Source: a virus (taxonomy: Duplodnaviria > Heunggongvirae > Uroviricota > Caudoviricetes). Taken from it: a stretch of 64,000 nucleotides of DNA. A program made the position numbers and the translations under genes. The notes below the pieces were generated by a model. That model made no database searches. It saw only the letters and a program-made list of their open reading frames with translations, and had not been told where the DNA came from. Below are positions 1-59,330 of this stretch, piece after piece; positions within the stretch are counted from its first letter, which is position 1, and each line of letters opens with the position of its first letter. The stretch lies in IMG/VR virus record IMGVR_UViG_3300035208_001992; one strand, written 5' to 3'.

Positions 1-58
1 TCAATATGTATTCATATGCAGTTGGCGGTGCAACAGTTTCACACGCGTGCCTAGCCAC
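1..58 (-). CDS. MARH-tag family protein, 5' end only (MARHACETVAPPTAYEYIL..., runs off window)
   Basis: Read by hand: GTG GCT AGG CAC GCG TGT GAA starting at 58. Overlaps the TAG (51-53) of the upstream mini-gene by 8 nt. Confidence 0.8.
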   Translation of the reverse strand, partial: MARHACETVAPPTAYEYIL

Positions 59-221
59 TGACTTGTGCCTGATGAGCAGCAGCCATGACTCGGATCTCGA
101 AGAGGCTATAATCGATTTGCAAGATGTCTAGAGATCTTCTTGCTCCATGGTGGAAGATTGACCGAAGCGGCTGTGGTAGGTCAACTGACCGATCTGGAAC
201 TTCACAGGCGTGTCTTGACAT
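51..221 (-). CDS. MARH-tag mini-protein, 56 aa (MSRHACEVPDRSVDLPQ...QVSG), not in ORF track
   Basis: ATG TCA AGA CAC GCC TGT GAA GTT CCA at 221 with AAGGGAG SD 9 nt upstream. Open to TAG at 51-53, which overlaps the next tagged start. Confidence 0.75.
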   Translation of the reverse strand: MSRHACEVPDRSVDLPQPLRSIFHHGARRSLDILQIDYSLFEIRVMAAAHQAQVSG

Positions 222-919
222 GGTACGTGCTCCCTTCTCAATTTGTAGATGTATTTGCGAAATTGACGAAAGCTTAGTCGCCCATGAGCTAACAGCGCTT
301 CAACTGGTATCTCATGCAGTTTCTTCGTGTAACCGTCACGCCAAAGTATTGTGCTACGTCCGTCACAGGTCTTCGTGCCAAGCATTCCGCGTGTCATACA
401 CCTGTTTTCAGAACGCAGCCAGATAAGGACGTTGGCGGCCACTGCTGGAATGATGAGATCAGCATGGTGCTCAATCACGTCTTGCCACGAATTGAACTGG
501 CTTGCGTCAAAATCAAATTCTTCAGCTTTGTCAGTTTCAGTTATCGTGTTGCCAACGATTGAGTACTTGCGTATTGTGATCTTTGGCTTATACGTGTCTG
601 AGCATACGTCAACCAGTGACATCGATCGATAGCTTTTTCCGAACTGCTCCAATTCGAGCCTTATGCTCATGACACCAGTTCGTCTAACATCTTTGCGACG
701 TTCAGCTGTTTCTACTAGCTCGTTGATGCGCTCTTCGACTGACTCATTCACGCGTGCATCATGGCTCATGTCATTGGCTTCAACGTCATCGTATGTAGGA
801 ACCACGCCACATGACTTGACAGAGAAGTCAAGACCGAGTATTCGCACAATGCCACTTCGCAATTTGTAAGCCTTGCGCAGTTGAGCGTGAGGATCTATCT
901 CACGCATGTGCCTAGCCAT
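128..919 (-). CDS. MARH-tag family protein (MARHMRE), 263 aa
   Basis: ORF track; N-terminal tag; 8-nt ATGGCTAG overlap with upstream stop; family blocks IVRILGLDF and LLAHGRLS. Confidence 0.85.
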   Translation of the reverse strand: MARHMREIDPHAQLRKAYKLRSGIVRILGLDFSVKSCGVVPTYDDVEANDMSHDARVNESVEERINELVETAERRKDVRRTGVMSIRLELEQFGKSYRSMSLVDVCSDTYKPKITIRKYSIVGNTITETDKAEEFDFDASQFNSWQDVIEHHADLIIPAVAANVLIWLRSENRCMTRGMLGTKTCDGRSTILWRDGYTKKLHEIPVEALLAHGRLSFRQFRKYIYKLRREHVPCQDTPVKFQIGQLTYHSRFGQSSTMEQEDL

Positions 920-1733
920 TTCGGAAGCAGTATGTTGTTGCGAGTCTTCGGTTGCGTCTGAAATCGCTACCGCAGATCTCAGTCAATTTTGCTGATACAG
1001 CATTAGCAACGTCAAAATCGATTTTGCCATCGTTCACTGGTATCGCGAGTCTTTCTGCGCACCTTTTGAAATCTCTTCCACGCATGACAAATTCTGCGTT
1101 GTTGTCATCTTGGCTTTTTGCATAGCAAGTGCTCTCCAACGTTTCGGCGTCGCGCGCGTCATAGAGGCATCGATATAACACAGAGCTAAGTATGATCTCG
1201 CCATTGCCGGACGTATCAACATCGTTGATCAAGTCAAGACATAAATCAGCGTCTTTCATCGTATACACGTGTTTCAAACCGCGTGATGTTAGCAGTTGTG
1301 AAACCATAGTGTTTGTCATGCCGCGCTCGTCCAGCGTTAAGTACTTCAACAGCGTTTCAGGCGTGTTACCAAATTTCATTTGATCAGCTAGAAACGGATG
1401 CGCTGCATGCAATTTGTAGTTGTAAGCGTCAGAATTTGGACAACAATAAGTTGTTTGACCGCCTACTGACCAATCTCTTGGCAATGCAGAAATTAGACCT
1501 GCAACGTCATGTATTGGACCAAGCAATCTCCAGTTGATGAGTCGCCGTGCTTCACCACGAGTAGTCAAGCCAACTACTAAAGCTTCAATACTTTCCTCAT
1601 CAACGTCATAGACGCTGAACAATTCAATGTCGATACCGCAGAAACGCATGATAGGACGATCTTTGACAGCACGCACAACATCAGTTGCTGTTGTGCAATC
1701 TGGATCGTATTGCTCAGCCATTCGTCTAGCCAT
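912..1733 (-). CDS. MARH-tag family protein (variant MARRMAE), 273 aa
   Basis: GGAG SD; ATGGCTAG overlap; family blocks MRFCGIDIEL and VNDGKIDF. Confidence 0.85.
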   Translation of the reverse strand: MARRMAEQYDPDCTTATDVVRAVKDRPIMRFCGIDIELFSVYDVDEESIEALVVGLTTRGEARRLINWRLLGPIHDVAGLISALPRDWSVGGQTTYCCPNSDAYNYKLHAAHPFLADQMKFGNTPETLLKYLTLDERGMTNTMVSQLLTSRGLKHVYTMKDADLCLDLINDVDTSGNGEIILSSVLYRCLYDARDAETLESTCYAKSQDDNNAEFVMRGRDFKRCAERLAIPVNDGKIDFDVANAVSAKLTEICGSDFRRNRRLATTYCFRNG

Positions 1734-2445
1734 GTGTTAGCTCCACTGCTTTTTCGAATACCAGATCTGTATTGAACTTACCATGTCCGTCTGTGATGTC
1801 ATCTATGCTGTACTTCAGCTTCATACGAGTGTTTTCAACGCGTATGACTTCGTCAAGAGACTCACCAGGCAGAATTGACGTCATAGTGTTGAAGCAGAAC
1901 GGGCCATCTCCACCGCTTAGCCAAGGTTTTGCTAGTTCACAATCGTTTGAAAGGCGCACGCGCAGCTCCTTTATGAAGTCTGCACCAAGTATGTACGTGG
2001 CTGAACGCTCGGGCAAGCCTGCAACCAACGCCGCTAAGCTTGAAACGCATTTGACGACTGAGTGTTCGCTCGGATCTATTGCTTGGCAGAAGAAAGCGCC
2101 TTCTTGGATGCGCTTTGGCGCCGATACGTAATAGAAACGTCGGTCACATGCTGAAGTGAAGATGAATTGCTTGAATGGTCGTGCTGGCTCGCCTTTCATT
2201 GTTAGTGTCAAGAGAGGCTTCCACGCGTCACTGCCACGCGGAAACAGCATACTAGCTGCTGTGTCTTCAACAGCGAAATTTGAGAGCGCATATTGAAGCA
2301 TTGTCAAGTGACTTGACGAGTTGACATTGTAGTCGACACCATGGAGTTTGATTTCTTTGCTTGCGATTAGCATGTCAATGATCAACGCTGCGTACTCAAT
2401 AGGATCGCTGGGTACAGTGTTGCGTTCACATGCATGCCTAGCCAT
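1726..2445 (-). CDS. MARH-tag family protein (MARHACE), 239 aa; start corrected from 2460
   Basis: ATG at 2445 with GGAG 9 nt upstream and 8-nt overlap with TAG at 2438-2440. Confidence 0.85.
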   Translation of the reverse strand: MARHACERNTVPSDPIEYAALIIDMLIASKEIKLHGVDYNVNSSSHLTMLQYALSNFAVEDTAASMLFPRGSDAWKPLLTLTMKGEPARPFKQFIFTSACDRRFYYVSAPKRIQEGAFFCQAIDPSEHSVVKCVSSLAALVAGLPERSATYILGADFIKELRVRLSNDCELAKPWLSGGDGPFCFNTMTSILPGESLDEVIRVENTRMKLKYSIDDITDGHGKFNTDLVFEKAVELTHG

Positions 2446-3148
2446 CGTTGTCGGCTCCAAGCAGCTTCAATGCACTAGCGATGTTCGATCGCAATTGATC
2501 ATTGCTCGAGATGAGCACACCTGTGCTATGCAATGATCCAACAAGATCTCGCAACGTGTTCTCAAGCTGCTTCACGCGATCGCTATATGCTTGCAAGGTA
2601 CGTGGCGGCTCGAAATCGATGTTGAAGATGCGTCTACGAGTGTCTTTTCTTGACGCAAGCAGAAACTTCTTGCTGTCCTGGTTAAGATCACCGACCAACG
2701 TCAATTGACATACTGCGCTTAAGCTTTCAAAATACTCACCATTGTTAGTGAATACGATGCGCTTGGATCCATTGCCACTATTGATCTGGTTGAATATCAT
2801 TGAAGCAGGATTGCGTACAGAGTCAAAATGAGCAGCACTCTTCAAGTACGGAAACAGATCAAGGTATATGATGATCCCTTGAGCGCTTGCGCGACCAAGC
2901 AATGGGTTACCTGGGCCATTGCCATCATGCGTCACGGACACGTTGTGTAGGCAAAACACAGACGGATCTATGCGTGTCCGCCAGCGTCCAGGTATGACTA
3001 AGACGCTACGTGACTTGTCTGCGTCAGCATAAGCAGTGATAAGCCATGATGCGAATGAACTGAACAACGCAGCATTGCTCTCAATTCCAGTCAAATCAAT
3101 GACCGTGTGCTGTTGAAGCGTTCCAAACATGTTTTCAAGATCAAGCAT
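2438..3148 (-). CDS. hypothetical protein, 236 aa; the only gene in the array without the tag
   Basis: ORF track; GGAG SD; ATGCTTGA 8-nt overlap; contains LTLVGDLNQD. Confidence 0.8.
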   Translation of the reverse strand: MLDLENMFGTLQQHTVIDLTGIESNAALFSSFASWLITAYADADKSRSVLVIPGRWRTRIDPSVFCLHNVSVTHDGNGPGNPLLGRASAQGIIIYLDLFPYLKSAAHFDSVRNPASMIFNQINSGNGSKRIVFTNNGEYFESLSAVCQLTLVGDLNQDSKKFLLASRKDTRRRIFNIDFEPPRTLQAYSDRVKQLENTLRDLVGSLHSTGVLISSNDQLRSNIASALKLLGADNDG

Positions 3149-4172
3149 TCAGTACTCCAAGTGTTAGTGAATCGCCCATCGCGACTATTCGATTTCTACC
3201 GCGAGTTTCGCGGGTGATGAAATTCATCTCATCAATTACGATTGTTGGATGGTCTTCATCTTTGTCATGCGCTTGTCCATGAGCGTCACGTCTCGCTCGT
3301 CTTTGCTGCTGCGCGTAGTCACCAAGCGCGAACATCGATTTTCCGGCACCTCGTGAAATGGTCATAGCTCCAACGTGCTTGTCACCTATGACCTTCATGA
3401 TAAACTCTGATTGACGCTTCTCTTCACGCGCAATACCAAGTTTGACGACTTCAACTGCTGCTCGTGCAGCATCACCCTGCAGGTTGCCGTCAACTAATAG
3501 ATCCTTCAGCATCCAGCTATGCTTGTTCTTTTCTTTGCCGCCAACAAGTTCAATGAATTCAATACGTACATCGTCATCATTGCTGCCAACGTGAGTCAAG
3601 TTCATAAAGTTTCGTACAACATACTCAGTGCCCTTGATTGAGTAGTTAGTCAGTTGATCTTTCTTTGCCAAGTATGTGAACAAATAACTCAAGTAGTTCT
3701 CAAGTATGCTCAACTTTATGCTCATTGGCAACTGGTCTGTCTCTGCTTGCAAGTCGCTCGAACGCACAGAGTGCATTGACGGCATATTCATTAAGCGACT
3801 GCCAATAGGCGCAAACCACATGCTACCGCTCATCGACTCGACGTTGATGAAAGGCTCAATGACAGGTTGCCCGCCAATTTTGATGATCTTGCCGTTCAAC
3901 GATAGTGCTGTAAGCACGAACGGGCGCATTGACGCTTGCATTGACAGATATGGTACGCACGTTTTTGAATGCTCAAGCCAATTGACGATGTTTTCTATGA
4001 ATGGCACGTCTTTCTGATCTGTCATATACGCGTAATCGATCCCATTGAACGGTGCTTGTGAGATCAAACAGATTTTGACGCCACAAAGACTGATGAACAA
4101 GTTGTCAGCAACCTTGCGATCAATACTGCGGATCACTGCGTATTCATCGACTTCGTGCATATGTCTGGTCAT
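3141..4172 (-). CDS. MARH-tag family protein (MTRHMHE), 343 aa, with P-loop-like C-terminal extension
   Basis: AGGAG SD; ATGA overlap; blocks ISLCGVKI and LLVDGNL; tail contains RGAGKS...IVIDE...IVAMGD. Confidence 0.85.
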   Translation of the reverse strand: MTRHMHEVDEYAVIRSIDRKVADNLFISLCGVKICLISQAPFNGIDYAYMTDQKDVPFIENIVNWLEHSKTCVPYLSMQASMRPFVLTALSLNGKIIKIGGQPVIEPFINVESMSGSMWFAPIGSRLMNMPSMHSVRSSDLQAETDQLPMSIKLSILENYLSYLFTYLAKKDQLTNYSIKGTEYVVRNFMNLTHVGSNDDDVRIEFIELVGGKEKNKHSWMLKDLLVDGNLQGDAARAAVEVVKLGIAREEKRQSEFIMKVIGDKHVGAMTISRGAGKSMFALGDYAQQQRRARRDAHGQAHDKDEDHPTIVIDEMNFITRETRGRNRIVAMGDSLTLGVLNA

Positions 4173-4821
4173 ACGTCATTCTCCTGTTTGTCAGCATACT
4201 TCAGTTTGTGTTGGCAATAAAGCTCAACTAACTTTGTTGGTGATACCGCTTTGTCAACTATGAGATCATCAAGCGGCACATACGTTGATGACCAGCACTG
4301 TTGTTGTTGATCAACATGAAACCTCAACACGTCCGATGGATTATTGACTTGAAACATCGACATAGTCAGCGGTTCGGTTTTGAGGATCAAGAAATCCACA
4401 GTGTCGAGCTTGTCATCGCCAGCTAGACACTCATAATCATTCTTGTGCACGCAAACGCCATCGATCCAAGCGTCAACAACTGCTACCTTAGCTATACTCA
4501 TTCGCGTGCTTTGTGGCAGCGCATCAACAAAGCGTTGCGGCGTTGTAGCGGTAACTAGTGCGTCATTGACGACAAAGCAATCATCAGCAACTGCCGACGT
4601 TAGATACAAGCGCCGACCTAGCTTGCATTCTAGCAACAGCGATCCGACGACCAATAAACTGCTTTGATGAATAGTGCCTGCTGACAAAAATGTCTAAGAC
4701 GGCTATCGTCTGAGTAAACCATCATGAATTCTATTCCGTAGATTTCAACCATGTTCGACTTACTGATCGCCGAAACTAGTTGAATCCACAGAGGTCTTTG
4801 CTCATACGCATGACGCGGCAC
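4169..4821 (-). pseudogene. MARH-tag family gene (MPRHAYE) split by a 1-nt frameshift (ORFs 4630..4821 and 4169..4687)
   Basis: The tagged 63-aa ORF overlaps an untagged 172-aa ORF carrying the family blocks QRFVDALP and LDDLIVDK. Adding one T to the T5 run at 4686-4690 gives a 217-aa protein of typical family length. Confidence 0.7.
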
Positions 4822-5446
4822 CGGTCACCTCATCGTCAAAGTAGTGGACCATGCTATTGAATTTCAGCTGCTCAACAAATTTTGTCGTAGCCTGTCCCGT
4901 GGCATCTATGATCTCCAAGTCATTTATGTTCAGACCATGAACACTCGAGTATCGCGTCGACAAGCTAAATTCGCCTTCTAGTGACTGCAATGTGAGTATT
5001 AGGTCGCCGTCGACCTCACCATGGTTGATTCGACGATGTACGGCTGTTGTCACTATCTTATGCAAAACGCTAGTGACGATCTCAATTGGAAAGCTGTCGA
5101 TCACTTGCTGTGCGTTTGAACCCATGAATTGAATCACAATGCTACCAAAGTCATGCATTGCCGTGCCAGAGTCTTTATTGACGTTCAACAATGATACTGC
5201 ATGTGCTTTGTTTGGCCATGAGAGCGTCAAATAGTCTGGGTCGAACATGAGCTGCTGCGGATCTGGCGTTCGACGATCTGGCATGTTCCATGGACCTACG
5301 TGTGCACGTATCTTCAAGTCCTTGGCTACCATCAAAAATTGACGGCCTAAGAACGTTACTGGTTCTGGGCCGTCATTTACTAGACGTCTTAGCATCTTTG
5401 CGAGATGCTGAGCAGGATTCAGTTCTTCATAGGCATGTCTTGCCAC
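4802..5446 (-). CDS. MARH-tag family protein (MARHAYE, GTG start), 214 aa
   Basis: AAGGAG SD; first gene after the promoter-like motif; its TGA stop lies in codons 6/7 of the next tag. Confidence 0.85.
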   Translation of the reverse strand: MARHAYEELNPAQHLAKMLRRLVNDGPEPVTFLGRQFLMVAKDLKIRAHVGPWNMPDRRTPDPQQLMFDPDYLTLSWPNKAHAVSLLNVNKDSGTAMHDFGSIVIQFMGSNAQQVIDSFPIEIVTSVLHKIVTTAVHRRINHGEVDGDLILTLQSLEGEFSLSTRYSSVHGLNINDLEIIDATGQATTKFVEQLKFNSMVHYFDDEVTGAASCV

Positions 5447-5458
5447 TTGCGCTCCTTT

Positions 5459-5497
5459 CTATTGCTAATAGTCATTTACTCAGTCGCAAGTTTACGC
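5459..5497 (-). promoter_or_regulatory. conserved promoter-like motif GCGTAAAC-N10-GTAAAT-N4-ATTAG-N3-TAG, copy 1
   Basis: Same blocks and identical spacing as 13727-13765; spans one of the few intergenic gaps in the array. Confidence 0.65.
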
Positions 5498-6127
5498 ATG
5501 GTTAACGTCTAACATTTTGAATGAATCTTGTAAGATCTTAGCAATTTTAGCATCGTCAATCTCGTGACCAGTCACAATCTCTGCGATGTCATCAACGATC
5601 GCTCTATGTCCATCAGAGCTGATCAATGTCAAGTCGTAAGATTCATTGTCATCACTGAGATTCACGACTACTCGTCTTTTAGCAATGCAACCAGCAACGC
5701 GATAATAGCGAGCTCTCATCAGCACCTTTAGAGACTTCAATCTGTCTGTAAGCGGTAAGTTGTCGATGTAGTGCTGCAAACCAACAGGTGCTTGACTAGG
5801 CCGGCCTTGCACGGCGTTAATCACAGCCGACTCGAAAAGCGTTGTCAATGAACATGGCATCGGCACACGCACAATTGTCGACGTGGTCAGTAATGTACTG
5901 TCGGCTAAACAGGTCCAGCCAGGTTGCAAATAAAAGAAGTCACCAGAATTGTCGAAACCAATTCGGGCGCCAACGCTTATTCTGAGCACTGTGTTAATGC
6001 CAAATAGTCTTACGATGCAATCCACATATTGAATATACTCGAACTCGTTTGTCATCACTGGCCCACGTCGAAACATGCCAACGATGATTTGGTCGATCAT
6101 CAGTTGCTCATGCGCGTGTCTGGCCAT
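5492..6127 (-). CDS. MARH-tag family protein (MARHAHE), 211 aa; start corrected from 6211
   Basis: AGGAGG SD before ATG 6127; 20-nt overlap with upstream TGA at 6108. Confidence 0.85.
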   Translation of the reverse strand: MARHAHEQLMIDQIIVGMFRRGPVMTNEFEYIQYVDCIVRLFGINTVLRISVGARIGFDNSGDFFYLQPGWTCLADSTLLTTSTIVRVPMPCSLTTLFESAVINAVQGRPSQAPVGLQHYIDNLPLTDRLKSLKVLMRARYYRVAGCIAKRRVVVNLSDDNESYDLTLISSDGHRAIVDDIAEIVTGHEIDDAKIAKILQDSFKMLDVNHA

Positions 6128-6659
6128 TGCGTTGCCTCCTAGGCTTCGTGATCCTAGCGATGATAGGAGCGATCTTGTTTTCGTTGATACTGCCGTCGCT
6201 GATGACGTCACTTAATTTCACTATTTGCGACTTGAGCGTTTTGTTGAAACCAATGATTACACTACGGCTGTATCCAACGATCGTACTGTTACGCGTGTAG
6301 CAGACACTGACGTATTTGTTGTCTTTCACGCCCATCTCTTCGATGCATGCTCTGACCGCATGCTCGATTAGATCCACTTTGATTTCGCTCAACACATTCT
6401 TGATCACGCTTTTAGCGATGTTCAACGGATCAACTATGGTGCTAGTGAAAAGATAGTAGTAGGCGTCATCTCCTTGGTGAAGATGAGCAACATCGACTCT
6501 GCCACGCCAAGGAGCTGCGCTTGGAACAGCATACAGCAGACCAACAGGATCCAAACGCAATTCAAAGATGATGCCGTCCAGCTTGAACTCTTGACCAGCG
6601 CATACAGCGCGTCGCACGCGCGAGCCGTTAGTTAGTGGTTCATACGCGTGTCTACTCAT
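6108..6659 (-). CDS. MARH-tag family protein (MSRHAYE), 183 aa; start corrected from 6716
   Basis: ATGAGTAG 8-nt overlap; blocks FKLDGIIF and VISDGSIN. Confidence 0.85.
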   Translation of the reverse strand: MSRHAYEPLTNGSRVRRAVCAGQEFKLDGIIFELRLDPVGLLYAVPSAAPWRGRVDVAHLHQGDDAYYYLFTSTIVDPLNIAKSVIKNVLSEIKVDLIEHAVRACIEEMGVKDNKYVSVCYTRNSTIVGYSRSVIIGFNKTLKSQIVKLSDVISDGSINENKIAPIIARITKPRRQRNGQTRA

Positions 6660-7299
6660 CTTCGTGCAACCTCTCGCGGTAACTGCCAAGCACCCACTTA
6701 AGAACAGCCTCACCATCGATTTTGCTATTCACTGTGATGTCGGCTATTTTGACGTTTGTTCTTTCTATGTCAAAATGCCTTTTGTAGCGCTTATTTGGTG
6801 GCAGCCATAACGCAGATAAGCTTAAGCGATTATTGCACCATACAGAAAAGATCAAATCGCTATGCACATACATACTATGCGTGCGCCTAACAGCTATGGA
6901 ACTTGGCAGTTCATCGTTGAACGGTAGCAAACTTGATTTCACGAGCATATCAATGATGCTTGACTTCGTTGGGCCAGGCATGCCATTCGTCAGCTGCATC
7001 TCATCAGTTGCAGTAAAGGCATACATTCCAGTGGCAGTGCGCGAGTACACAATGTCATTGCGCTCATAAGATTCACGTGCAATGTTGATCTTTGACAATG
7101 ATTCGGGATCATGACAGTCAATCATCACACGTCCAAAATCATGCGTGGCTTCTTCACCATCTTCATTCATGAAATAGAATGGCTCTTCATGTGAGCAGAC
7201 TAAGGCATTCAACCCACAAATTTCGATTGTTGCTGGCTTGCTGACAAGTGATCGAGCCCAGTCTATAGGTTGCATTCGTTCGTACATGTGCCTAGCCAT
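6652..7299 (-). CDS. MARH-tag family protein (MARHMYE), 215 aa; start corrected from 7356
   Basis: GGAG SD; ATGGCTAG overlap with the mini-gene stop at 7292. Confidence 0.85.
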   Translation of the reverse strand: MARHMYERMQPIDWARSLVSKPATIEICGLNALVCSHEEPFYFMNEDGEEATHDFGRVMIDCHDPESLSKINIARESYERNDIVYSRTATGMYAFTATDEMQLTNGMPGPTKSSIIDMLVKSSLLPFNDELPSSIAVRRTHSMYVHSDLIFSVWCNNRLSLSALWLPPNKRYKRHFDIERTNVKIADITVNSKIDGEAVLKWVLGSYRERLHEDE

Positions 7300-7456
7300 G
7301 TGATGCAGTCTCCATTTGTTCGCGATCATGCAGCATTCGAGCAAGCACTTGGTCACTAACTTGCAAGGTTTGGAATGGCTTCAAAGTTCCGTTCATTTGC
7401 ATAAAACTCACAACGATTTCTACTATGCCTGGCACTTCACATGCGTGCCTAGCCAT
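7292..7456 (-). CDS. MARH-tag mini-protein, 54 aa (MARHACEVPGIVEIV...ASHG), not in ORF track
   Basis: Translated by hand; coupled at both ends by ATGGCTAG overlaps. Confidence 0.8.
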   Translation of the reverse strand: MARHACEVPGIVEIVVSFMQMNGTLKPFQTLQVSDQVLARMLHDREQMETASHG

Positions 7457-7631
7457 GAGACATCAACCTAGCTGCAGGTGGCCTGATCTGTATAAGTGAT
7501 TCGGTGAACTGTTTGAACATCTTCTCAGCATCGACTTGCCCAAACGTTGACACTTCGTCAAACGCGCACCAAACTCGCGTGCCGCCGCGCAATCGCTGAA
7601 CATCAGGTACTTCACAACCGTGTCCAGCCAT
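7449..7631 (-). CDS. MARH-tag mini-protein, 60 aa (variant MAGHGCEVPD...); start corrected from 7673
   Basis: AGGAG SD 8 nt before ATG 7631; upstream mini-gene stops at the TGA inside the tag (7612). Confidence 0.75.
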   Translation of the reverse strand: MAGHGCEVPDVQRLRGGTRVWCAFDEVSTFGQVDAEKMFKQFTESLIQIRPPAARLMSHG

Positions 7632-7776
7632 TTGAGATCTCCTGTCGACGACGTCTTTCTTCCATTGCTTCATTTATCCATTTTGGTGACAAGTCATAGA
7701 CTCGTATCATGCGCCCGTCATTGCGCTCAATTGTCATGACATTTTCGTCTTTCACTTCTGCGCCGTGTCTAGCCAT
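7612..7776 (-). CDS. MARH-tag mini-protein, 54 aa (MARHGAEVKDENV...GWTRL), not in ORF track
   Basis: GGAGG SD before ATG GCT AGA CAC GGC GCA GAA at 7776; open to TGA at 7612. Confidence 0.8.
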   Translation of the reverse strand: MARHGAEVKDENVMTIERNDGRMIRVYDLSPKWINEAMEERRRRQEISNGWTRL

Positions 7777-8408
7777 TTGGCAACCTCCGCTTCTTTGAAT
7801 TTGTCAAAGCATATAAGTGCTCGCTCGAACAGGAAGTGTTCGTCAAGAGCGCCGTCTTTGATGCATTCATCTAACTTACAAATAGGCATAGGCATGATCA
7901 TGCGTCTGTCACTTGTCATTATCGCAAAGCCGATCAGCAAGTCATGACTACTTAAGTTGTATGTAATCAGCGAACGCAACAACGTATCACGAGAAATGCT
8001 GGTGATTTTTTTGATGCTAGATAAGATGTCGTAGCGCGCGATGATTGAAGATCTGACGTGGCAACCGATTACGTTAGAAATCAAGTTGTCAGGAGCGCAA
8101 TCAATCAACTCTTGCGCGTTAATGCTGGATGGAACATTGACACGATTAGACATGTTGTACGTGCCAGCGCCATCGTCCTCTGTCGAATTGAATCGTGCAA
8201 TAACGCTTTCACCAAGATCATGCCTGAATAACCATGTCACGTTGAGCCATTGACTGTCCGCAATTATGACGCGATCTTCATCGTAATCTGAGCCACAACG
8301 CCTCCACACTTTGCCATTAAGTCCATGCATAGTCGCGTCTATTGGACAAGCTAACGCGTTCATCCAGCGAGTCATTGGTTGACACTGTTCGTATGCGTGT
8401 CTAGGCAT
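7752..8408 (-). CDS. MARH-tag family protein (MPRHAYE), 218 aa; start corrected from 8441
   Basis: ATGCCTAG overlap; blocks QELIDCAP and CIKDGALD. Confidence 0.85.
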   Translation of the reverse strand: MPRHAYEQCQPMTRWMNALACPIDATMHGLNGKVWRRCGSDYDEDRVIIADSQWLNVTWLFRHDLGESVIARFNSTEDDGAGTYNMSNRVNVPSSINAQELIDCAPDNLISNVIGCHVRSSIIARYDILSSIKKITSISRDTLLRSLITYNLSSHDLLIGFAIMTSDRRMIMPMPICKLDECIKDGALDEHFLFERALICFDKFKEAEVAKWLDTAQK

Positions 8409-9057
8409 GGGTAGTATACAGCTTTCCAAATACAGCTTCAATCTGGTCTTTGGTTTGCTGCTTGAACGACAAGACCAAACGCATTATTCTATAGCGATCG
8501 AAATCACCATCACGCAACAGCGACGACAATGGAGCGCTTGCTGTTTCGGAGACGTTGAAGTGCGTGCTTGTCGCGCCAATCACAGCAAATTTTACATGCA
8601 ACGCGTCTTGCGCGTCTTCACTGATGACAACGTCCATCTTTGAGACGCAGTCACTCACATAGCTACTACGCCGAGACAAATCGAACGTTTTCACAACGTA
8701 ATCCTGAAAGGCATATCGCAGCAACTGCAACTTCTTGGACTTCGGAAGTTCGTCGACAATCTGCTGTGGCTCGCGACAATCCAATGGCTGACGTATACTA
8801 GTGAATCGGTCATTGCCTTCACGCCAGTTAGCCACAAAGTAATCGCGAGAACTCAAATATGATGTGTCAATAATCAAGCTCTTGAATGGGAATGTCATAA
8901 GCATGTCGCACTTGTCTTGATCTGTACCAGGCACTCCAATGAGCCAATCGAGCCTGAGCACACAGTTGACTCCGCAAAGTTTGACGTGTTGCGGTGTAGC
9001 AAGGCACTTCACTTGATCTTCCCATATTTGTCGATGTTCGACTGCATGCCTGCTCAT
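8401..9057 (-). CDS. MARH-tag family protein (MSRHAVE), 218 aa
   Basis: GGAG SD; ATGA overlap; blocks VKLCGVN, QQIVDELP and LLRDGDFD. Confidence 0.85.
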   Translation of the reverse strand: MSRHAVEHRQIWEDQVKCLATPQHVKLCGVNCVLRLDWLIGVPGTDQDKCDMLMTFPFKSLIIDTSYLSSRDYFVANWREGNDRFTSIRQPLDCREPQQIVDELPKSKKLQLLRYAFQDYVVKTFDLSRRSSYVSDCVSKMDVVISEDAQDALHVKFAVIGATSTHFNVSETASAPLSSLLRDGDFDRYRIMRLVLSFKQQTKDQIEAVFGKLYTTHA

Positions 9058-9686
9058 GCTTGTGCTCCAACGCGTTTGTCTTCGACAATTAAGCGCTTTT
9101 CAAGTAGTGACAGACTTAGCAATTTAGGCAAGTTGAACTTACCGTCTTCGCACACGTCAGCAATAGTGATCACAGCAACACCATGATGCTTGACATAGTC
9201 ACTCAACCTTCTTGTGATATAGCATTCTTTGAGGTCACAGCTGACAACGATTGACATCAAGCCAAACGTGATCTCGTATCCGATCGATCTGGCGTACAAT
9301 ATAAGGGCGTTAGTCAAGATCGACTCGAACACATTTCTGAGGTCAGTCGCAGGTATTGCGTCGACCAATGATTGAAGCGACGAGCTGCATATTGCATCAG
9401 CATGTCCGTTGATGTACTTAGATGCGGCGTCATGCTGGTAGATGAAAACATCGCTCTCGTCATCATACCAAGCAATAGCACAACCGTACTTGTTTTGACC
9501 GTAGCTCAACGCAAGACGGTCAGTCGTCTTAGGAACGAGCTCGTCGAACTTGCGCGTTGCATCTGCATTGAACATGCGTGCGCTCAAATCAATCAAGCCA
9601 ACGTGTACAACGTTGTTGTGTTGGATCATTTTGAGAAGATCTTGGTATTTGAGCACTTTACCGATCTCGCACATATGTCTAGCCAT
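9054..9686 (-). CDS. MARH-tag family protein (MARHMCE), 210 aa
   Basis: AGGAG SD; ATGGCTAG overlap; blocks QSLVDAIP and VCEDGKFN. Confidence 0.85.
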   Translation of the reverse strand: MARHMCEIGKVLKYQDLLKMIQHNNVVHVGLIDLSARMFNADATRKFDELVPKTTDRLALSYGQNKYGCAIAWYDDESDVFIYQHDAASKYINGHADAICSSSLQSLVDAIPATDLRNVFESILTNALILYARSIGYEITFGLMSIVVSCDLKECYITRRLSDYVKHHGVAVITIADVCEDGKFNLPKLLSLSLLEKRLIVEDKRVGAQA

Positions 9687-10374
9687 GTCCGATTACTCCT
9701 ACCTCGTCAGATGGCACTGTTACTCCAGCAGTGTTGAATCCGTTCAATGTAAGCTGCTCAAGCACATACTTGTCAACGCGCTTCACGTTCTCGACTAAGC
9801 TAGACATTGTACAGATTTTCTTGGCGTGGACAAGCACATCATAGTCACCGTTGCGCCAGACTAACTTTGTGAATTTGTTGTCGCTTCTTACCATTCTTAT
9901 GTTCGGCAGGTCGAGAATCAATGATGCAACATATTCAACTATGGTGAACAAAATCTGAGACAATGCATAATAGTGTTGTTGCGTGCCAGTGAATTCATCA
10001 ACAAGATCTTGAAGTCTGCCACAAAACGCTGTTGGTAATTTGTACCAGCTATTCTCAGAACCGGAACTGAACAGCTGCATGTCAGGTTGGTATGTGCCAC
10101 GACAAATTCGCGCTAGCGTGACTGATCTCGTAATGAACTTAAGAGGAGCACTAAGATCAAGATTGAGCATCGCAACGCTAACCGGCATGATATTGAACTC
10201 ATTGTCAAGCATGCTCACTTGCTCTTCACCAGACATACGAGTCATTGTGAAGAATGCACTGCTTACTGTGGCATCAATTCCGCAAAGTTTGATCGACAAT
10301 TGCTGGTTGCCGCGATCGAGATACTCCACCAAGCGATCACGTGGACTGACTCGTTCTGTCATGTGTCTAGCCAT
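9679..10374 (-). CDS. MARH-tag family protein (MARHMTE), 231 aa; start corrected from 10407
   Basis: GGAGG SD; TAATG overlap; blocks IKLCGID and QDLVDEF. Confidence 0.85.
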   Translation of the reverse strand: MARHMTERVSPRDRLVEYLDRGNQQLSIKLCGIDATVSSAFFTMTRMSGEEQVSMLDNEFNIMPVSVAMLNLDLSAPLKFITRSVTLARICRGTYQPDMQLFSSGSENSWYKLPTAFCGRLQDLVDEFTGTQQHYYALSQILFTIVEYVASLILDLPNIRMVRSDNKFTKLVWRNGDYDVLVHAKKICTMSSLVENVKRVDKYVLEQLTLNGFNTAGVTVPSDEVGVIGHG

Positions 10375-11129
10375 TACAGCAACCTCCGCGTATGATGCAG
10401 CTTCCAAATTTCGTCGTCTTTCACAGCAATGATGTCTTTCAACTTTGCCTCATCAAATTTCACAGCTTTAGCAGCAGACAGCGTGATGACGTCGACTCGA
10501 CGTTCAGCGCTCGCGTTTGTCATGACGACAAAGTCTTTCTTGACTCGACGTATATGGAATCTAGAGCCTTCCAATGAGTACGCCAGCACATAGTTGAGCA
10601 GCATTCTAGCTAACAGCGCGTCTTTGTCTTTAGCGCTGAGCTCATTCAACTGTTGCTTAATCACGTCCTGTCCAACGACCAGGTTGAATGGTTCTAAATC
10701 GCATGCTGGGTCTACGCGCCCGAACACGCGTCTACCACCATCAAAATTCGAACCATATAGCAAAGTCACCACATCGAATTGGTCGTCGGACGTTGCCGCA
10801 ACAAACGGGACGTCGATCGACGTTGCAGTCTGTGTGGTCGACTTTATTGATGCGAAGAACATTTCAGCAAAGCTACTGTAGCTCTTCCAACCGTCACGCG
10901 TTGTAACTGCATTGATCGGAAAATGAGCAGTGCTTGGATCAGAGCAATCGTCTAGTACGAGCTCAACTGTTTCTCTAAGATTGCTATCGACATATGTAAG
11001 TCTCTTTGCCGCTGAAGTAACGATGATCGGCAATCCATCGATCTCTAACTCGACTGGATCAGCGTACTTGATGAGTGCTTCAGCAAGCATATCTCGTCCA
11101 CAAGCCTTTTCAGTCATATGCCTAGGCAT
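10374..11129 (-). CDS. MARH-tag family protein (MPRHMTE), 251 aa
   Basis: ATGCCTAG overlap; block LEIDGLPI. Confidence 0.85.
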   Translation of the reverse strand: MPRHMTEKACGRDMLAEALIKYADPVELEIDGLPIIVTSAAKRLTYVDSNLRETVELVLDDCSDPSTAHFPINAVTTRDGWKSYSSFAEMFFASIKSTTQTATSIDVPFVAATSDDQFDVVTLLYGSNFDGGRRVFGRVDPACDLEPFNLVVGQDVIKQQLNELSAKDKDALLARMLLNYVLAYSLEGSRFHIRRVKKDFVVMTNASAERRVDVITLSAAKAVKFDEAKLKDIIAVKDDEIWKLHHTRRLL

Positions 11130-11769
11130 GATGCCTCAACAGTTTCTTGCGCTCCAATTCAGCGCGTAAGAACGTGAGCGGATGCTGGTACGACGCAAGT
11201 GTTCTGACGCTGCTGACAACTACATGCGTTGAAAGGAAGAGTGCAGCATCATCATTTCCAATAGGCTTGGCATAGCAAGTTTTTGTTCCTCCATCTTTGC
11301 AAAAGTTAGCGAGTGCTGCCAAGACGCATTTGCAACCAAACCAGAATTTGGTCTCATTGCTTAGCATGTCAAACGCTTCTCGTATGCTATTGACGGATCG
11401 ATATGATACTGCTTGCATCTCAATCGTTGATGACCTAGCCCAATCAGATGCTGTTTCAGCGTTCATCACTGCGATGTAAAACAAGCCAGATCCAAAGTTT
11501 GTGGCGAGGAAAGAATGCCAGTCAGTTGGAAGACGCTTCTCGTCCAAGCTGCCATCTGTCAGTTGCGCGTCACCGAGGTTGAACATCATGTTGGACGACG
11601 TGTTCTTTGCAAAAGCATATGCACTCTTCACAACTGTTTCAACATTAACGCGACATGGACGGACGTTCATTTGCAGATTGCCGAATAGTGGCACGCGTTC
11701 TTCTTGGCATTCGAACACTCGTTTGATCTGGTCTTCGAACGTTACTTGCTCAGCCATGTGTCTAGCCAT
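11122..11769 (-). CDS. MARH-tag family protein (MARHMAE), 215 aa
   Basis: GGAG SD; ATGGCTAG overlap. Confidence 0.85.
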   Translation of the reverse strand: MARHMAEQVTFEDQIKRVFECQEERVPLFGNLQMNVRPCRVNVETVVKSAYAFAKNTSSNMMFNLGDAQLTDGSLDEKRLPTDWHSFLATNFGSGLFYIAVMNAETASDWARSSTIEMQAVSYRSVNSIREAFDMLSNETKFWFGCKCVLAALANFCKDGGTKTCYAKPIGNDDAALFLSTHVVVSSVRTLASYQHPLTFLRAELERKKLLRHHA

Positions 11770-12439
11770 GAAGTGGGCTCCAATTCCGTATCAGTTCATT
11801 GCGTAGTTTAGCATATGGACGATCTGGCTCATGTATGATGCTTGCAACGTCACTAACAATGACGCTACCCTTTTGAGTATCATACAGTTCGATCAATCCG
11901 TCTGCGTTCAAGTGCATTCCAATGCGTTGCGGTACGTTACCGCATGCACCACCGAATTCCTGAGCAACATACATGTTGAGCTCATCTTGGTACTCGCGTG
12001 TGATGAACATGTCTTTGTGACATTTGCTCAAGCAATTAAACGCGTCTTGTATCGACTGCACTTCTAAATATGGCACAAGCTCACTGTCATTTCTTGTAGC
12101 ATACATCCAAGCTAGCGCACTTGGACGTCTTAGCGCAAAATGCTGTGACCTATACGATATGCCGTCCACTGACAGCAGACCATAACGACTCAAATCTTGT
12201 TTGGTCACAATCCTGTCATCGCTTGAAGGCCACATAATATATGATTCAATAATTGGCCTGCTAACTTGGTCAGGCATGTTCACGAACATCTTACGTTCTA
12301 TAGGCTCGCGTTGATTGAGCGACGTGTAGATCTTTATCTTCAGCTCTTTGTTCAACTCGAATGTCTGTGGTTCACTATTGTGTAGGACGCAAAGACAATG
12401 GAAGAAGCTTGGTCTAGTTTCAGTAGCATGCCGACTCAC
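11762..12439 (-). CDS. MARH-tag family protein (MSRHATE, GTG start), 225 aa; closest paralog of 13029..13694
   Basis: AAGGAG SD; aligns by eye with 13029..13694 (LRRPSALAWMY/LRTPNAYARIY; VIVSDVASII/VIISDVSQII). Confidence 0.85.
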   Translation of the reverse strand: MSRHATETRPSFFHCLCVLHNSEPQTFELNKELKIKIYTSLNQREPIERKMFVNMPDQVSRPIIESYIMWPSSDDRIVTKQDLSRYGLLSVDGISYRSQHFALRRPSALAWMYATRNDSELVPYLEVQSIQDAFNCLSKCHKDMFITREYQDELNMYVAQEFGGACGNVPQRIGMHLNADGLIELYDTQKGSVIVSDVASIIHEPDRPYAKLRNELIRNWSPLHG

Positions 12440-12466
12440 AGCAGATCTCCTTTGTTGATGACGTTG

Positions 12467-13036
12467 TTAGAACCAGCGTTCAACCTCTTCAATATCTATC
12501 ATGTGATTCGACACCAGTGCGCTGAGCATTATCTCAGGTGAGACGAAGAGCATCTCTTCAATGAAGCAGTGAGCGACTAGTCCAATGTCTTTTCCATGCG
12601 TGTTAGCAGTCAGGCGAGTCAAATGTGCTTGCCTGACTGCTTTGATCCGCTTACCTTCATGACCAATCTTGCTGAATCTTGATCGTCGCAAAACGCCTTT
12701 GACCATCTCAGTAGCAACTATGCCTTGATGCGCTTCTGACATGTCATCAATCAACTGCTGTGGATCAGCGCTGTGCATGGTAAGTTCTTCGTCAATCATT
12801 ATCATGTACTCGCTGCTCAACTTCTTGTGGCCGATCATGACGTTGAACTCATTGACGCGCTTCAATCGAACAGCATGTGATAACTCCAAGTCACTCTCAT
12901 CGCCTTCGTACACGTTTTCAAATGTGTCGATGACCATAGTGCATTCGATGTCATGGAACATCACCGTTTGCTCTTCACGCAAGTTGCTGGCCAATCGCGT
13001 CCAGCACGACAGTTCTTCTGGCATATGCCTAGACAT
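12467..13036 (-). CDS. MARH-tag family protein (MSRHMPE), 189 aa; start corrected from 13120
   Basis: GGAG SD; ATGTCTAG overlap; block QQLIDDMS. Confidence 0.85.
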   Translation of the reverse strand: MSRHMPEELSCWTRLASNLREEQTVMFHDIECTMVIDTFENVYEGDESDLELSHAVRLKRVNEFNVMIGHKKLSSEYMIMIDEELTMHSADPQQLIDDMSEAHQGIVATEMVKGVLRRSRFSKIGHEGKRIKAVRQAHLTRLTANTHGKDIGLVAHCFIEEMLFVSPEIMLSALVSNHMIDIEEVERWF

Positions 13037-13694
13037 GAGTACGACTCCATTGACGTACAAATTCATCGTAGAATTTGACGTACGGTTCATCAACCTCATT
13101 GATGATCTGTGACACGTCACTAATGATCACTTCTTCACAGGTGGAGTACGTTACGTCTAAGACATCTTCATTTATGACAACATTCAAAAACGTGCGTACG
13201 TCATTTATGCCGCGCTTCACTGAAAGATCTATTGCGAGTCTAAGGAAGAACTCGCTCGTGATGATCACGTCTTTGGTTAGCTTACTCAAGCACTCCCAAG
13301 TTTGTTTGATGGATCTGATGTCTTTGCACAACACGCTTTTGGATCCTTCAGCAAACGGATAAATCCTGGCATATGCGTTTGGCGTTCTCAACAGCATCTC
13401 TTCTGAAGCGAGTGATTCACTAGATGCCATCAGCAAGACGAATCGTGACGCTGGTCCTAATTCTGGATCAGTTCTAGTTTCGTTGGTTGTCCACGTTGCC
13501 CAGCCGTTGACTATTGGATGATGCAGTGTCTTGGATGTGTCTTGTGGGTACAGTATGTCATCAATAGATGCTGGAGTAGCGCTAACGCGCATCTGCAAAT
13601 CACTGTTCAATACGAATATCTGCGGATCGCAGCGTTTGATGTCACATAGGCAATTGTAGATGTCATCACGATCTTCGAATGCATGTCTAGCCAA
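13029..13694 (-). CDS. MARH-tag family protein (MARHAFE, TTG start), 221 aa; first gene of the array
   Basis: AAGGAG SD; lies downstream of the nrdJ terminator and the promoter-like motif. Confidence 0.85.
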   Translation of the reverse strand: MARHAFEDRDDIYNCLCDIKRCDPQIFVLNSDLQMRVSATPASIDDILYPQDTSKTLHHPIVNGWATWTTNETRTDPELGPASRFVLLMASSESLASEEMLLRTPNAYARIYPFAEGSKSVLCKDIRSIKQTWECLSKLTKDVIITSEFFLRLAIDLSVKRGINDVRTFLNVVINEDVLDVTYSTCEEVIISDVSQIINEVDEPYVKFYDEFVRQWSRTHV

Positions 13695-13726
13695 CTGTTG
13701 ATCTCCTTCAGTAGCAGTGATGATAC

Positions 13727-13765
13727 CTAGTACTAATCACTATTTACACATTGCATTGTTTACGC
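13727..13765 (-). promoter_or_regulatory. conserved promoter-like motif, copy 2 (head of MARH array)
   Basis: GCGTAAAC-aatgcaatgt-GTAAAT-agtg-ATTAG-tac-TAG; same spacing as 5459-5497. Confidence 0.65.
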
Positions 13766-13785
13766 CTGGTTAACAGCGGCCAATA

Positions 13786-13827
13786 GAAACAAAAGAGGCC
13801 GGCACCCTCATCGGATACCGGCCTCTT
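13786..13827 (-). terminator. intrinsic terminator after nrdJ
   Basis: Minus-strand hairpin AAGAGGCCGGTATCC-GATGA-GGGTGCCGGCCTCTT followed by TTGTTTC. Confidence 0.85.
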
Positions 13828-13852: not shown

Positions 13853-16357
13853 TCAACAGCGCGAGTGACCGCATGCTGTACAATGCTGACATCCTTCTTC
13901 ACGAATGAACGATGCACTGCCACACGACGGGCAGATGTCAGGCGCTGGCGTCTTTGCCTTTGCACGCTTACGCGCAGTAGCAGTCACTGCTGCAGCAAGC
14001 TCAGGCAAAGTAGATGGTGCAAGCTCACCAACCGTCTGCATCTTGATGATCTCTTCCGTGATCTCGACGATCGCACGAGAGACTGCTTCTGGCATCGACC
14101 GGACTTGGTTCTTGCCGAAGCCGACGGAGTTAGCTCCGCCAATGCCGTTGAACTGCTCTGCAATCTCGCTGAGACGCTCCATTGGCGTCATCGGTCCATT
14201 GATCTGCAATGCCAATGAGCAAGCACGACCAATACCCTCTGCCATCGACGTGATGTCTGATCCAGCTTTGCCTGCTGTGATGAAGATCTCTACTGGACTG
14301 CCGTTCGCATCGACGTTCACTGTGACGAAGACGCGTCCAACTGGACTTTCCTTTTCGATGGTGAGACCGCGAGCCATCTTTGGACGCTCACGCATCTTGA
14401 TGATCGGCTCTTTCTTGTGCTTCTTGTCTTCAGCTTCTGCTTTGTCCTTGTCGCTCGGCTTCGTTGACAGCACCTGTTCGCTACGCGAACCATCGCGGTA
14501 GATCGTACCGCCTTTGCAGCCAAGCTTGTACATGAGCTCGTACAGCTCGCGTGTCTGGTCGACAGTGTAGTCGTTCGGCACATTGCATGTCTTCGAGATG
14601 CTGCTGTCGATCCAACGCTGCAACGTTGCTTGGACACTGACGTGTTCTTCAGGTGTCAGATCCATAGCACTAACGAACCACTTCGGCAGATCCTTTGCGT
14701 TTGGATTTGCAGCACGCCATTCAGCGACGATGTCGACGTCGATCTCAGTCGAACCAAGACGAGAATTGCGAGTGAACGTCCAAGCGTAGTATGGTTCAAT
14801 GCCTGTGGACGTGTTCACCATCGTGCCAGTCGTACCTGTTGGAGCAACAGTCAACAACGTCACGTTGCGCAGTCCATTTTCCTTGATTGCCTTGCGCACG
14901 TTTGCTGGAAGGCGCTTTGCATATCCAGACTGCAGCAACTTGCTGGCGTCGAATTTCGGGAACGATGACTTCTCTTGCGCGATTGCGCTCGACATGAGAT
15001 ACGCTTCCGACGCGATGAACTCGCCAAGCTTGTCGACAAACTCGTTGCCGCGCTTTGATCCGTACGCTAGCTCAAGCTTGATGAGCATCTCTGCAAGACC
15101 CATGATGCCGAGACCAATACGACGCTCGTCGAGCTGTTGTGTCTTGATCTCGTCCATGAAGTAGTGATTGAGATCAACCACGTTGTCCAAGAACCGTACA
15201 GCATATCTAACAGCAAGTCCAAGACTTTCCCAGTCAACCGACTTGTTCGGAAATACGAAACGGCTGAGGTTGAGCGCTCCCAAATTGCAGCAACCATAAG
15301 CAGGGAGCCCCTGCTCAGCGCACGGATTGCACGAAACGATCGGTGCAAAGTACGCTGAGTTTGATTCCTTGTTGTAACGCTCGATGAAGAAGATTCCTGG
15401 TTCGGCTGAGGCCCATGCTGATTCGATGATCTGGTTCCAAACGTCACGAGCCTTCAACGTCTTGTAGATGATTGTCTTGTATCCGTTCGACTTCCACTGC
15501 TTGAGATCACCATTCCAATCGATGTAGTGGTCATCACCAGTGTCTGGGAACTCGAGATTCCAATCTGCGTCGGCTTCAACGGCCGTCATGAACTCGTCAG
15601 AGATGCCGACCGAGATGTTGGCATTCACAATCTTTCCATCTTCGCGCTTTGCGTTGATGAAGTCGATGATGTCAGGATGCCAGTCATTCAGGATGAGCAT
15701 CAAAGCACCGCGACGTGATCCACCTTGTTCGATGAGTCCAGTCGTGAAGCTGTAGAGGCCGCCCCAGCTAACAGAGCCAGATGACCTGCCATTGACGCCT
15801 TTGACATATGCATAGCGCGGCCGTAAGCTTGACAAGTTGACACCAACGCCACCGCCGCGGCTCATGATCTCAGTCATCTCGCCTAGCGTATCAAGGATGC
15901 CACTACGGCTGTCTTTTGGAGATGGAATCACGTAGCAATTGAAGAGTGACAGCTGTTGGTCTGTTCCAGCTGCAGCTAGAATGCGTCCGCCTGGAACGAA
16001 GCGCCAATCGTCAAGCAGCCACTCGAAGTTGCGTGTCCAAGTGTCACGCTCATCTTCGTCTTCGACTGACGCGACGCCACGAGCAGTACGAGCCATTGCT
16101 TGCTCAGCTGTTAGCTCGAGAGGCTTGTCAACACTGTCCCAGTCTTGGGTTGTGGTCGTTCCGTCTCGGAGCTCGATTTCAACTTGCTTGCCGTAGCCAT
16201 CATGCTTGACTACTTTGCCGATGACGCGTTGACGCGATTTCTGATCGACACAAACAAGAACAACGTCACCGGTTTCCAGTGATTCTTTCTTCGTGTCTTT
16301 CAATGCATAACGATCGAGGAAGATTTTTTCGCCAAGCTCGTTCATCGGGTTGCTCAT
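13853..16357 (-). CDS. nrdJ: adenosylcobalamin-dependent (class II) ribonucleotide reductase with C-terminal TSCPD domain and Zn ribbon
   Basis: Motifs PGGRIL, NCYV, GGGVG, RRGA, NPCAEQ (catalytic Cys), CNLG, APTGT, SISKT, GCKGGTIYRDGSR. C-terminal EIFITAGKAG and CPSCG...EEGC..C..CG.SRC. Confidence 0.95.
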   Translation of the reverse strand: MSNPMNELGEKIFLDRYALKDTKKESLETGDVVLVCVDQKSRQRVIGKVVKHDGYGKQVEIELRDGTTTTQDWDSVDKPLELTAEQAMARTARGVASVEDEDERDTWTRNFEWLLDDWRFVPGGRILAAAGTDQQLSLFNCYVIPSPKDSRSGILDTLGEMTEIMSRGGGVGVNLSSLRPRYAYVKGVNGRSSGSVSWGGLYSFTTGLIEQGGSRRGALMLILNDWHPDIIDFINAKREDGKIVNANISVGISDEFMTAVEADADWNLEFPDTGDDHYIDWNGDLKQWKSNGYKTIIYKTLKARDVWNQIIESAWASAEPGIFFIERYNKESNSAYFAPIVSCNPCAEQGLPAYGCCNLGALNLSRFVFPNKSVDWESLGLAVRYAVRFLDNVVDLNHYFMDEIKTQQLDERRIGLGIMGLAEMLIKLELAYGSKRGNEFVDKLGEFIASEAYLMSSAIAQEKSSFPKFDASKLLQSGYAKRLPANVRKAIKENGLRNVTLLTVAPTGTTGTMVNTSTGIEPYYAWTFTRNSRLGSTEIDVDIVAEWRAANPNAKDLPKWFVSAMDLTPEEHVSVQATLQRWIDSSISKTCNVPNDYTVDQTRELYELMYKLGCKGGTIYRDGSRSEQVLSTKPSDKDKAEAEDKKHKKEPIIKMRERPKMARGLTIEKESPVGRVFVTVNVDANGSPVEIFITAGKAGSDITSMAEGIGRACSLALQINGPMTPMERLSEIAEQFNGIGGANSVGFGKNQVRSMPEAVSRAIVEITEEIIKMQTVGELAPSTLPELAAAVTATARKRAKAKTPAPDICPSCGSASFIREEGCQHCTACGHSRC

Positions 16358-59301: not shown

Positions 59302-59330
59302 GAGTTAGTCAATTCTGGACTGACTAACTC
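59302..59330. repeat. perfect 10-bp inverted repeat GAGTTAGTCA-N9-TGACTAACTC
   Basis: Overlaps the stop codon of 59329..61452; weak U-tract, so either a terminator or an operator. Confidence 0.6.

Follow-up and report, generated by a model that had tools for sequence, protein, structure and literature searches.

A conserved N-terminal tag encodes the upstream gene's stop codon at recurrent 8-nt overlaps in a jumbo phage gene array

Among closely spaced co-directional genes, a spacing of −8 nt is a recognized and enriched class, and the ATGA (−4) overlap restricts residue 2 of the downstream protein, since it needs A as the first base of codon 2 (PMC12548453). A stop codon just past the next AUG, with a ribosome site behind it, is the layout of coupling by termination-reinitiation or local unfolding (PMC12548453, PMC6728339). 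In phage T4, a capsid targeting sequence (CTS) is carried by IPI, IPII, IPIII, and Alt and is removed by the gp21 prohead protease (PMC3012670, PMC7411985). Here, we analyzed a stretch of 64,000 nt (the window) from the virus record IMGVR_UViG_3300035208_001992, in which the genes of a minus-strand row (the array) share a short N-terminal peptide (the tag) and in which the DNA encoding this tag doubles, at 12 junctions, as the stop codon of the preceding gene. The row occupies window bases 1–13694, is read from 13694 to 58, and continues beyond the low end of the window. The pattern M-[ASPT]-R-H-[AMG]-x-E opens 23 of its genes, and in a 24th (1733) R replaces H4; on the plus strand, this pattern has a single chance match. 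The tags start, on the minus strand, at positions 13694, 13036, 12439, 11769, 11129, 10374, 9686, 9057, 8408, 7776, 7631, 7456, 7299, 6659, 6127, 5446, 4821, 4172, 2445, 1733, 919, 221, and 58, and the genes are named below by these positions.

At the 12 junctions, neighboring genes overlap by 8 nt, and the upstream stop is a TAG whose T closes codon 2 and whose AG opens codon 3 (+5 to +7). The original prediction, made from the sequence, had assigned this role to the TAG in (A/G)TG NNT AGR at 12 listed junctions, and our analysis reproduced the assignment exactly. Specifically, ATGGCTAG forms the junctions at 11762–11769 (upstream C-terminus …LHG), 9679–9686 (…GHG), 7449–7456 (…SHG, joining two mini-genes), 7292–7299 (…SHG), 2438–2445 (…NDG, from an untagged gene at 2438–3148), 1726–1733 (…THG), and 912–919 (…RNG), while ATGCCTAG is found at 11122–11129 (…HHA) and 8401–8408 (…THA), all on the minus strand. 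The other three, likewise on the minus strand, are ATGTCTAG at 13029–13036, which holds the TAG stop of the 13694 gene (…THV), ATGAGTAG at 6652–6659 (…EDE), and GTGGCTAG at 51–58, where the upstream gene is the 221 mini-gene (…VSG). Because the upstream ends are read as xAT-GNN-TAG, the upstream proteins terminate in HG, NG, DG, HA, HV, DE, or SG, as had been proposed for the first five of these.

Three further junctions (7631, 6127, and 4821) lack the TAG and overlap by 20 nt; there, the same frame ends at a TGA that spans codon 6 and Glu7 (+17 to +19), also in agreement with the earlier claim. At 7612–7631 (−), codon 3 is GGA (Gly) and the upstream 7776 gene ends at the TGA across codons 6 and 7, while at 6108–6127 (−) and 4802–4821 (−) the tags read GCC AGA and CCG CGT, respectively, and the upstream stop is the TGA at +17. 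Conversely, the tags of 13694, 10374, and 7776 keep a TAG that no upstream gene uses, a point on which the original prediction was also correct. The first of these (13687–13694, −) belongs to the first gene of the array, which starts TTG GCT AGA and has no upstream gene reading into it. At 10367–10376 (−), the upstream gene stops at TAATG (−1 spacing) and the other frame gives …C-N-G-TAG; at 7752–7776 (−), the upstream 8408 gene crosses the tag in another frame and stops 25 nt in. With …N-G-TAG appearing in the alternative frame at both 10374 and 7776, these two idle TAGs look like relics of −8 junctions in which the upstream gene shifted frame close to its end. The other junctions are ATGA overlaps (9057 and 4172), the TAATG (10374), the 25-nt overlap (7776), a start nested by 94 nt (221), and two gaps (12439 and 5446).

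The choice of bases at the tag departs from expectation exactly where the stop is written. AGA or AGG encodes Arg3 in 20 of 22 tags, compared to an AGR share of 27% in array gene bodies and 12% in other window genes (P = 7e-10), so the predicted excess over array-wide usage holds. The third base of codon 2 is T in 17/23 tags (7.4 expected, P = 5e-5), and 15 tags have a TAG at +5, where 1.9 would be expected (P = 1e-11). The remaining synonymous sites are near expectation, including His4 (CAC/CAT, 12/10), the third base of AGR (13 A:9 G), the Ala5 codons, and Glu7 (GAA in 17/23). The constraint falls, in other words, on the T, A, and G bases and not on tag DNA overall. Since pairwise similarity between most array members is at noise level, their bodies having diverged almost beyond recognition, inheritance without selection would not have preserved these three bases. 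Stop usage follows the same pattern: TAG terminates 14/23 array genes but only 2/28 other genes (P = 5e-5), and 16/21 overlapping array junctions are in the −8/−20 phase, compared to ~32% in prokaryotes generally (P = 3e-5; PMC3887535). The fallback TGA at +17 is weakly enriched (14/23 against 9.1 expected, P = 0.03).

A slightly different strain provides a direct view of the switch between the two stops. A 1,265-bp ENA contig carries variants of the 7776, 7631, and 7299 genes, the last being 97% identical to the window version. In this strain, the 7631 gene (P0044) starts MARHGCE, with AGA as codon 3, and the upstream protein (P0046) has 50 amino acids and ends …EISNG at TAG. In the window, the 7631 gene starts MAGHGCE (GCT GGA), and the upstream protein has 54 amino acids and ends …EISNGWTRL at TGA. 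A single base thus changes the tag Arg to Gly, removes the TAG of the neighbor, and extends the neighbor's translation (by WTRL) to the TGA at +17. The window's Gly3 is probably the derived state, as Arg3 is the family norm (22/23). It follows that the two stops act as first and fallback stops and that both genes share these bases, which bears out the earlier proposal that this short stretch holds start and tag together with the stop of the preceding gene and a second one in reserve.

We consider it likely that the junctions represent a known −8 stop/start overlap that was fixed in one form by the conserved tag, spread by duplication, and is doubly selected. The overlap class is in itself fairly ordinary, and its occurrence at 12 junctions would come from the shared tag. 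Overlapping starts are common in the non-array genes as well, with ATGA or GTGA at 10/27 junctions. For most tags, however, ATGA is impossible because codon 2 encodes Ala, Pro, or TCN-type Ser (GCN, CCN, or TCN); the only tags that use it, 9057 (AGC-Ser) and 4172 (ACC-Thr), have a codon 2 beginning with A. With Arg at position 3, the sole stop that fits an 8-nt overlap is therefore T-AG, i.e., NNT followed by AGR. A tag requiring a small residue at position 2 and Arg at position 3 would leave 8 nt with TAG as the next shortest overlap, and a T-ending codon 6 followed by the Glu7 codon would create the second stop, TGA, 12 nt further on. The junction probably arose once and was then copied as the gene family grew by duplication. 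Two constraints would then freeze the same bases, in that a change in the T or the AGR would lose the upstream stop and a change of the Arg would harm the tag.

The arrangement may also serve translation. GGAG, GAGG, or AGGA ribosome sites lie 8–12 nt before the tag ATG at 19/23 junctions, compared to 5% of random array positions, and the junctions fold neither more nor less than random positions do. A terminating ribosome would halt 5–7 nt past the next AUG, with the GGAG site 8–12 nt before that AUG, and re-initiation or local unfolding could then keep the members of one long mRNA co-expressed. Judged by this layout, translational coupling at the junctions is plausible.

Several observations weigh against the view that a doubly selected, duplicated overlap explains everything. 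Of eight tags in which the TAG could not end an upstream gene, seven retain AGR (P = 7e-4 relative to the body share and 0.009 relative to an N-terminal share of 40%), so stop use leaves part of the bias unexplained, and the presence of TAG is only loosely tied to its usability (12/15 vs 3/8, P = 0.07). Non-array genes also favor AGR in codons 2–12 (8/20). The genes have their own ribosome sites and folding is unremarkable, so coupling may be unneeded. As to descent by duplication, the pair 13694 and 12439 is the sole set of paralogues that can still be clearly aligned. The AGR bias may in part stem from a codon preference near gene starts or from stop use having been lost recently.

Taken further, the same AGR observations would suit a reading in which GCT-AGR serves initiation or an RNA-level signal at the gene start, with the upstream frame ending at the resulting TAG only by coincidence. 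In favor of it, the unusable-TAG tags keep AGR, the N-terminal AGR share of non-array genes exceeds the 12% seen overall, and GCT AGA follows the start codon even in the array's opening gene, which lacks an upstream gene. Nevertheless, 20/22 tops the 40% N-terminal share (P = 1e-6), and the preference does not extend into the genes, as codons 8–20 of array genes use AGR for only 3 of 29 Arg residues. Early NGG codons in E. coli genes tend to reduce expression. The array region matched no Rfam family, and no special junction folding was seen. A start signal leaves unexplained why 16/21 upstream genes are in the frame that can use the TAG and why T occupies the third position of codon 2. We therefore regard this explanation as rather unlikely.

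The original prediction had gone beyond the double use of the tag DNA and proposed that the ~21-nt junction is a portable recombination module, so that exchange between junctions inserts, deletes, or reorders whole genes and the row is an integrase-free cassette array. Differences in gene presence or absence would then begin and end within ATGNNTAGRCAY. Some features are what such exchange might leave behind. The junction is the sole DNA still common to the members, and homology-guided unequal exchange would have to fall there; repeated regulatory motifs are known to mediate modular shuffling in T4-type phages (PMC2839356). The lone clear paralogue pair (13694 and 12439) has an unrelated member between them, the unrelated untagged gene at 2438–3148 has a −8 junction on each side, and mini-genes with a CEVP-type leader are found 7 kb apart. 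The separated pair, the untagged gene, and the distant mini-genes are compatible with past rearrangement but prove nothing.

Against this proposal, exact identity between junctions reaches at most 15 nt (median ~6–7), which is short for efficient homologous recombination and far below that of PeSL motifs. The 13694/12439 pair is old: nucleotide identity is ~45–70% in 30-nt segments, and the tags do not stand out as a sharper boundary. Large assemblies (306, 278, 243, and 93 kb) encode identical proteins, apparent differences lying only in the called start, and the 97%-identical strain has its variants of 7776, 7631, and 7299 on one 1,265-bp contig, which fits the local order in the window. Clean exchange between junctions would not give the several irregular ones (221, nested by 94 nt; 7776, with an overlap of −25; and 12439 and 5446, with gaps). 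Finally, the P0035/P0050/P0051 orthologues of related phages have both ends conserved and variable centers, unlike the outcome of whole-gene swaps. With no evidence of exchange, junction identity this short, diverged bodies, and identical proteins across assemblies, the cassette array is unsupported, and we consider it unlikely. The broader version, in which the junction is a self-contained joint selected as such, microhomology exchange moves cargo genes, and the array is a counterpart of PeSL cassettes and one instance of a general route by which jumbo phages diversify their head cargo, is in our estimate very unlikely.

The cluster formed by P0035, P0023, P0050, and P0051 shows how these genes do vary. 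Their first 32 residues are nearly identical (three variable sites) and their last 28 are identical, with a much more variable center and an overall identity of ~60%; small in-frame indels occur, including a 5-residue tandem duplication (VEFKY). Conserved ends with variable centers point to change or exchange inside genes, not to whole-gene swaps at the junction, as far as these sequences indicate. A profile search of 1.84 billion cluster representatives returned only the phage's own genes and two related-phage members (P0022 and P0023, with their clusters) on short contigs. IMG/VR scans with an array protein, nrdJ, P0035, and P0022 yielded no relatives, and two metagenome scans for relatives were empty. 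The junction DNA pattern had 44 single matches in IMG/VR, none with a second tag, which is the chance level. A Mantel test of array distance against similarity was uninformative, as it rests almost wholly on the one paralogue pair.

As for function, the tag is most likely a putative head-maturation protease site or a head-loading signal of the T4 CTS type. As in capsid targeting, a short N-terminal peptide is common to otherwise diverse proteins and ends in small residue-x-Glu. A comparison is offered by a gene for a 707-amino-acid protein (59329–61452, −), in which the peptide occurs away from any junction: A-R-V-A-x-E is found four times in this gene (0.0 expected) and once in the gene at 63220–63999 (−). 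Neither product had a match in Pfam or PHROGs. In all five internal copies the Arg codon is CGC or CGA, as opposed to AGR in 20/22 tags (P = 3e-4). Recurrence of A-R-V-A-x-E inside the modular 707-amino-acid protein would support the protease-site reading of the tag. In this protein, A-R-V-A-[PS]-E is located at residues 147, 287, 437, and 558, and S-A-R-T-A-A-E is found near the N-terminus; the sites delimit pieces of ~120–150 amino acids, of which the first and third share homology (Z = 23). By sequence, the protein resembles a polyprotein or a scaffold that would be cut at sites of the array-tag type. Within the window, no gene was recognized as encoding a protease.

The polyprotein-like 707-amino-acid product, the rarity of TAG elsewhere in the window (2/28 stops), and the fact that a +1 shift at TAG would enter the downstream frame at codon 3 with R-H-A-x-E intact might suggest +1 frameshifting into fusion polyproteins (…H-G-R-H-A-x-E) that a protease cuts at the tag, but this is highly improbable, given that the codon before the TAG (GGC, GCC, or GTC) is not a slippery P-site codon, that the ribosome site lies 13–17 nt upstream of it, unlike that of prfB (~3 nt upstream), and that the genes' own start codons and ribosome sites make fusion needless. 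Recoding of the TAG stop was also rejected, as the standard code leaves the long open reading frames (ORFs) uninterrupted and no tRNA is present in the window. A start at an internal Met5 in the H-M variants was rejected as well, since the ribosome site lies 8–12 nt before Met1 and R-H is kept through synonymous changes.

In the public gene calls from JGI (P0001, P0003, P0009, P0011, P0012, P0014, P0018, and P0020), many members begin at Met5 or further downstream, and starts such as MCEIG…, MREID…, and MAEQY… lie just past the upstream stop. Such annotations consequently conceal the tag and the overlap alike.

The array lies downstream of nrdJ, a class II ribonucleotide reductase gene (13853–16357), and its portion within the window (51–13694, −) comprises the tagged genes, the untagged gene at 2438–3148, and a probably frameshifted member (4821/4687). 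A strong intrinsic terminator follows nrdJ at 13793–13827 (−). Since the array strand has no second terminator of such strength, transcription of the array probably yields long polycistronic RNA; no strong terminators were found inside it, weak 5–7-pair matches being at chance level, and sigma-70-like sites along it are no more frequent than chance. A 45-nt gap within the array (5447–5491, −) and the DNA upstream of 13694 share a GCGTAAAC…GTAAAT motif. In both places (13700–13775 and 5447–5495, −), GCGTAAAC is followed by 10–11 nt and then by GTAAAT…ATTAG, and the genes that it precedes, one opening the array and the other following the gap, have non-ATG starts (TTG and GTG, respectively). The GCGTAAAC motif may be a candidate phage promoter that divides the array into two operons. 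The G+C content of the array is ~5% below that of its surroundings. The tetranucleotide CTAG is strongly depleted at 13853–64000 (62 seen vs 195 expected from base composition) but not within the array at 1–13694 (46 seen vs 53 expected), where 14 of the 46 occurrences are in tags.

Three members of the row have unusual structures. The untagged 236-amino-acid gene at 2438–3148 (−) has an 8-nt overlap at each end, with ATGCTTGA upstream and ATGGCTAG downstream; the former (3141–3148, −) is a −8 junction without a tag, at the start of this gene, and its stop is TGA. No relation of the gene to the tagged family was detectable (hhalign E = 0.65). Further −8 overlaps occur outside the array at 32486 and 32254, as the original prediction had pointed out along with 3148, and the stops of these three non-tag overlaps are TGA or TAA. 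At 4169–4821 (−), a tagged ORF (4630–4821, 63 amino acids) and an untagged ORF (4169–4687) overlap in different frames. The latter has the family's mid-protein P-Q-x-h-h-D-x-L-P motif (a weak match, E = 0.012), and as the two jointly have the normal length of a member, their sequences probably represent one frameshifted member. The 221 mini-gene starts 94 nt inside the 919 gene (128–919), in a different frame and with a strong AAGGGAG ribosome site, and the 919 gene reads through the tag of the mini-gene without stopping there.

The rest of the window encodes, on the same strand, very large proteins, among them an SNF2 helicase and others containing Fn3-associated and PKD domains; the rest-of-window proteins had no PHROG match. 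The window proteins are encoded on a 305,891-bp contig, and the source is an uncultivated jumbo phage without a deposited relative. Neither a megablast search with the array nor a tblastn search with one array member and a 735-amino-acid neighbor found relatives among 50,697 phage records. Array proteins had no match in Pfam or PHROGs, and an AlphaFold2 model of one array protein (pLDDT 43) was too poor for a structure search.

The array illustrates how a conserved N-terminal tag and a phage's habit of overlapping stops and starts can jointly fix the DNA at a gene boundary. Such a double constraint would account for the unusual codon choice, for the overrepresentation of TAG among the stops, and for the repeated occurrence of HG, NG, and HA at C-termini. 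As the tag is hidden in public gene calls, similar arrays may be under-annotated. Junction-to-junction exchange, if true, would give large phages a novel means of rearranging their set of cargo genes, but nothing here shows exchange.

Of the systems that resemble this one, the PeSL cassettes of T4-type phages (PMC2839356, PMC4122927) are closest to the shuffling idea, with a short repeat between accessory genes and no integrase. PeSLs, however, are longer and regulatory (a promoter and a terminator-like stem-loop), and their role is backed by indels between close relatives, whereas the array repeat amounts to at most 15 identical coding bases, with no such indels seen; no border motif of the PeSL type (tens of bases, with promoter and stem-loop) was found at array junctions. 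The T4 CTS offers a further likeness. Like it, the array tag is short, N-terminal, and Glu-ended, has a small residue three positions before, and sits on diverse proteins, and its motif recurs inside another protein of the phage. The tag also resembles the AXE cleavage motif of the giant phage SPN3US (PMC7411985). Unlike the T4 internal proteins, the array comprises ~24–28 members of one very diverged family, and while T4 ipIII and ipII are 115 nt apart with no stop/start overlap, the array writes the neighbor's stop into the tag. The junctions themselves most resemble −8 coupled ORFs (NTGNNTRR; PMC12548453, PMC6728339, PMC3887535): the genes are co-directional, the upstream stop lies 5–7 nt inside the downstream gene, the ribosome site is in the last codons of the upstream gene, and the overlap is the shortest possible in its phase. 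Unlike such ORFs generally, the array has its overlap written into a conserved N-terminal tag and repeated at 12 junctions, where the Arg codon permits no stop but TAG and the Glu codon supplies a second stop behind it.

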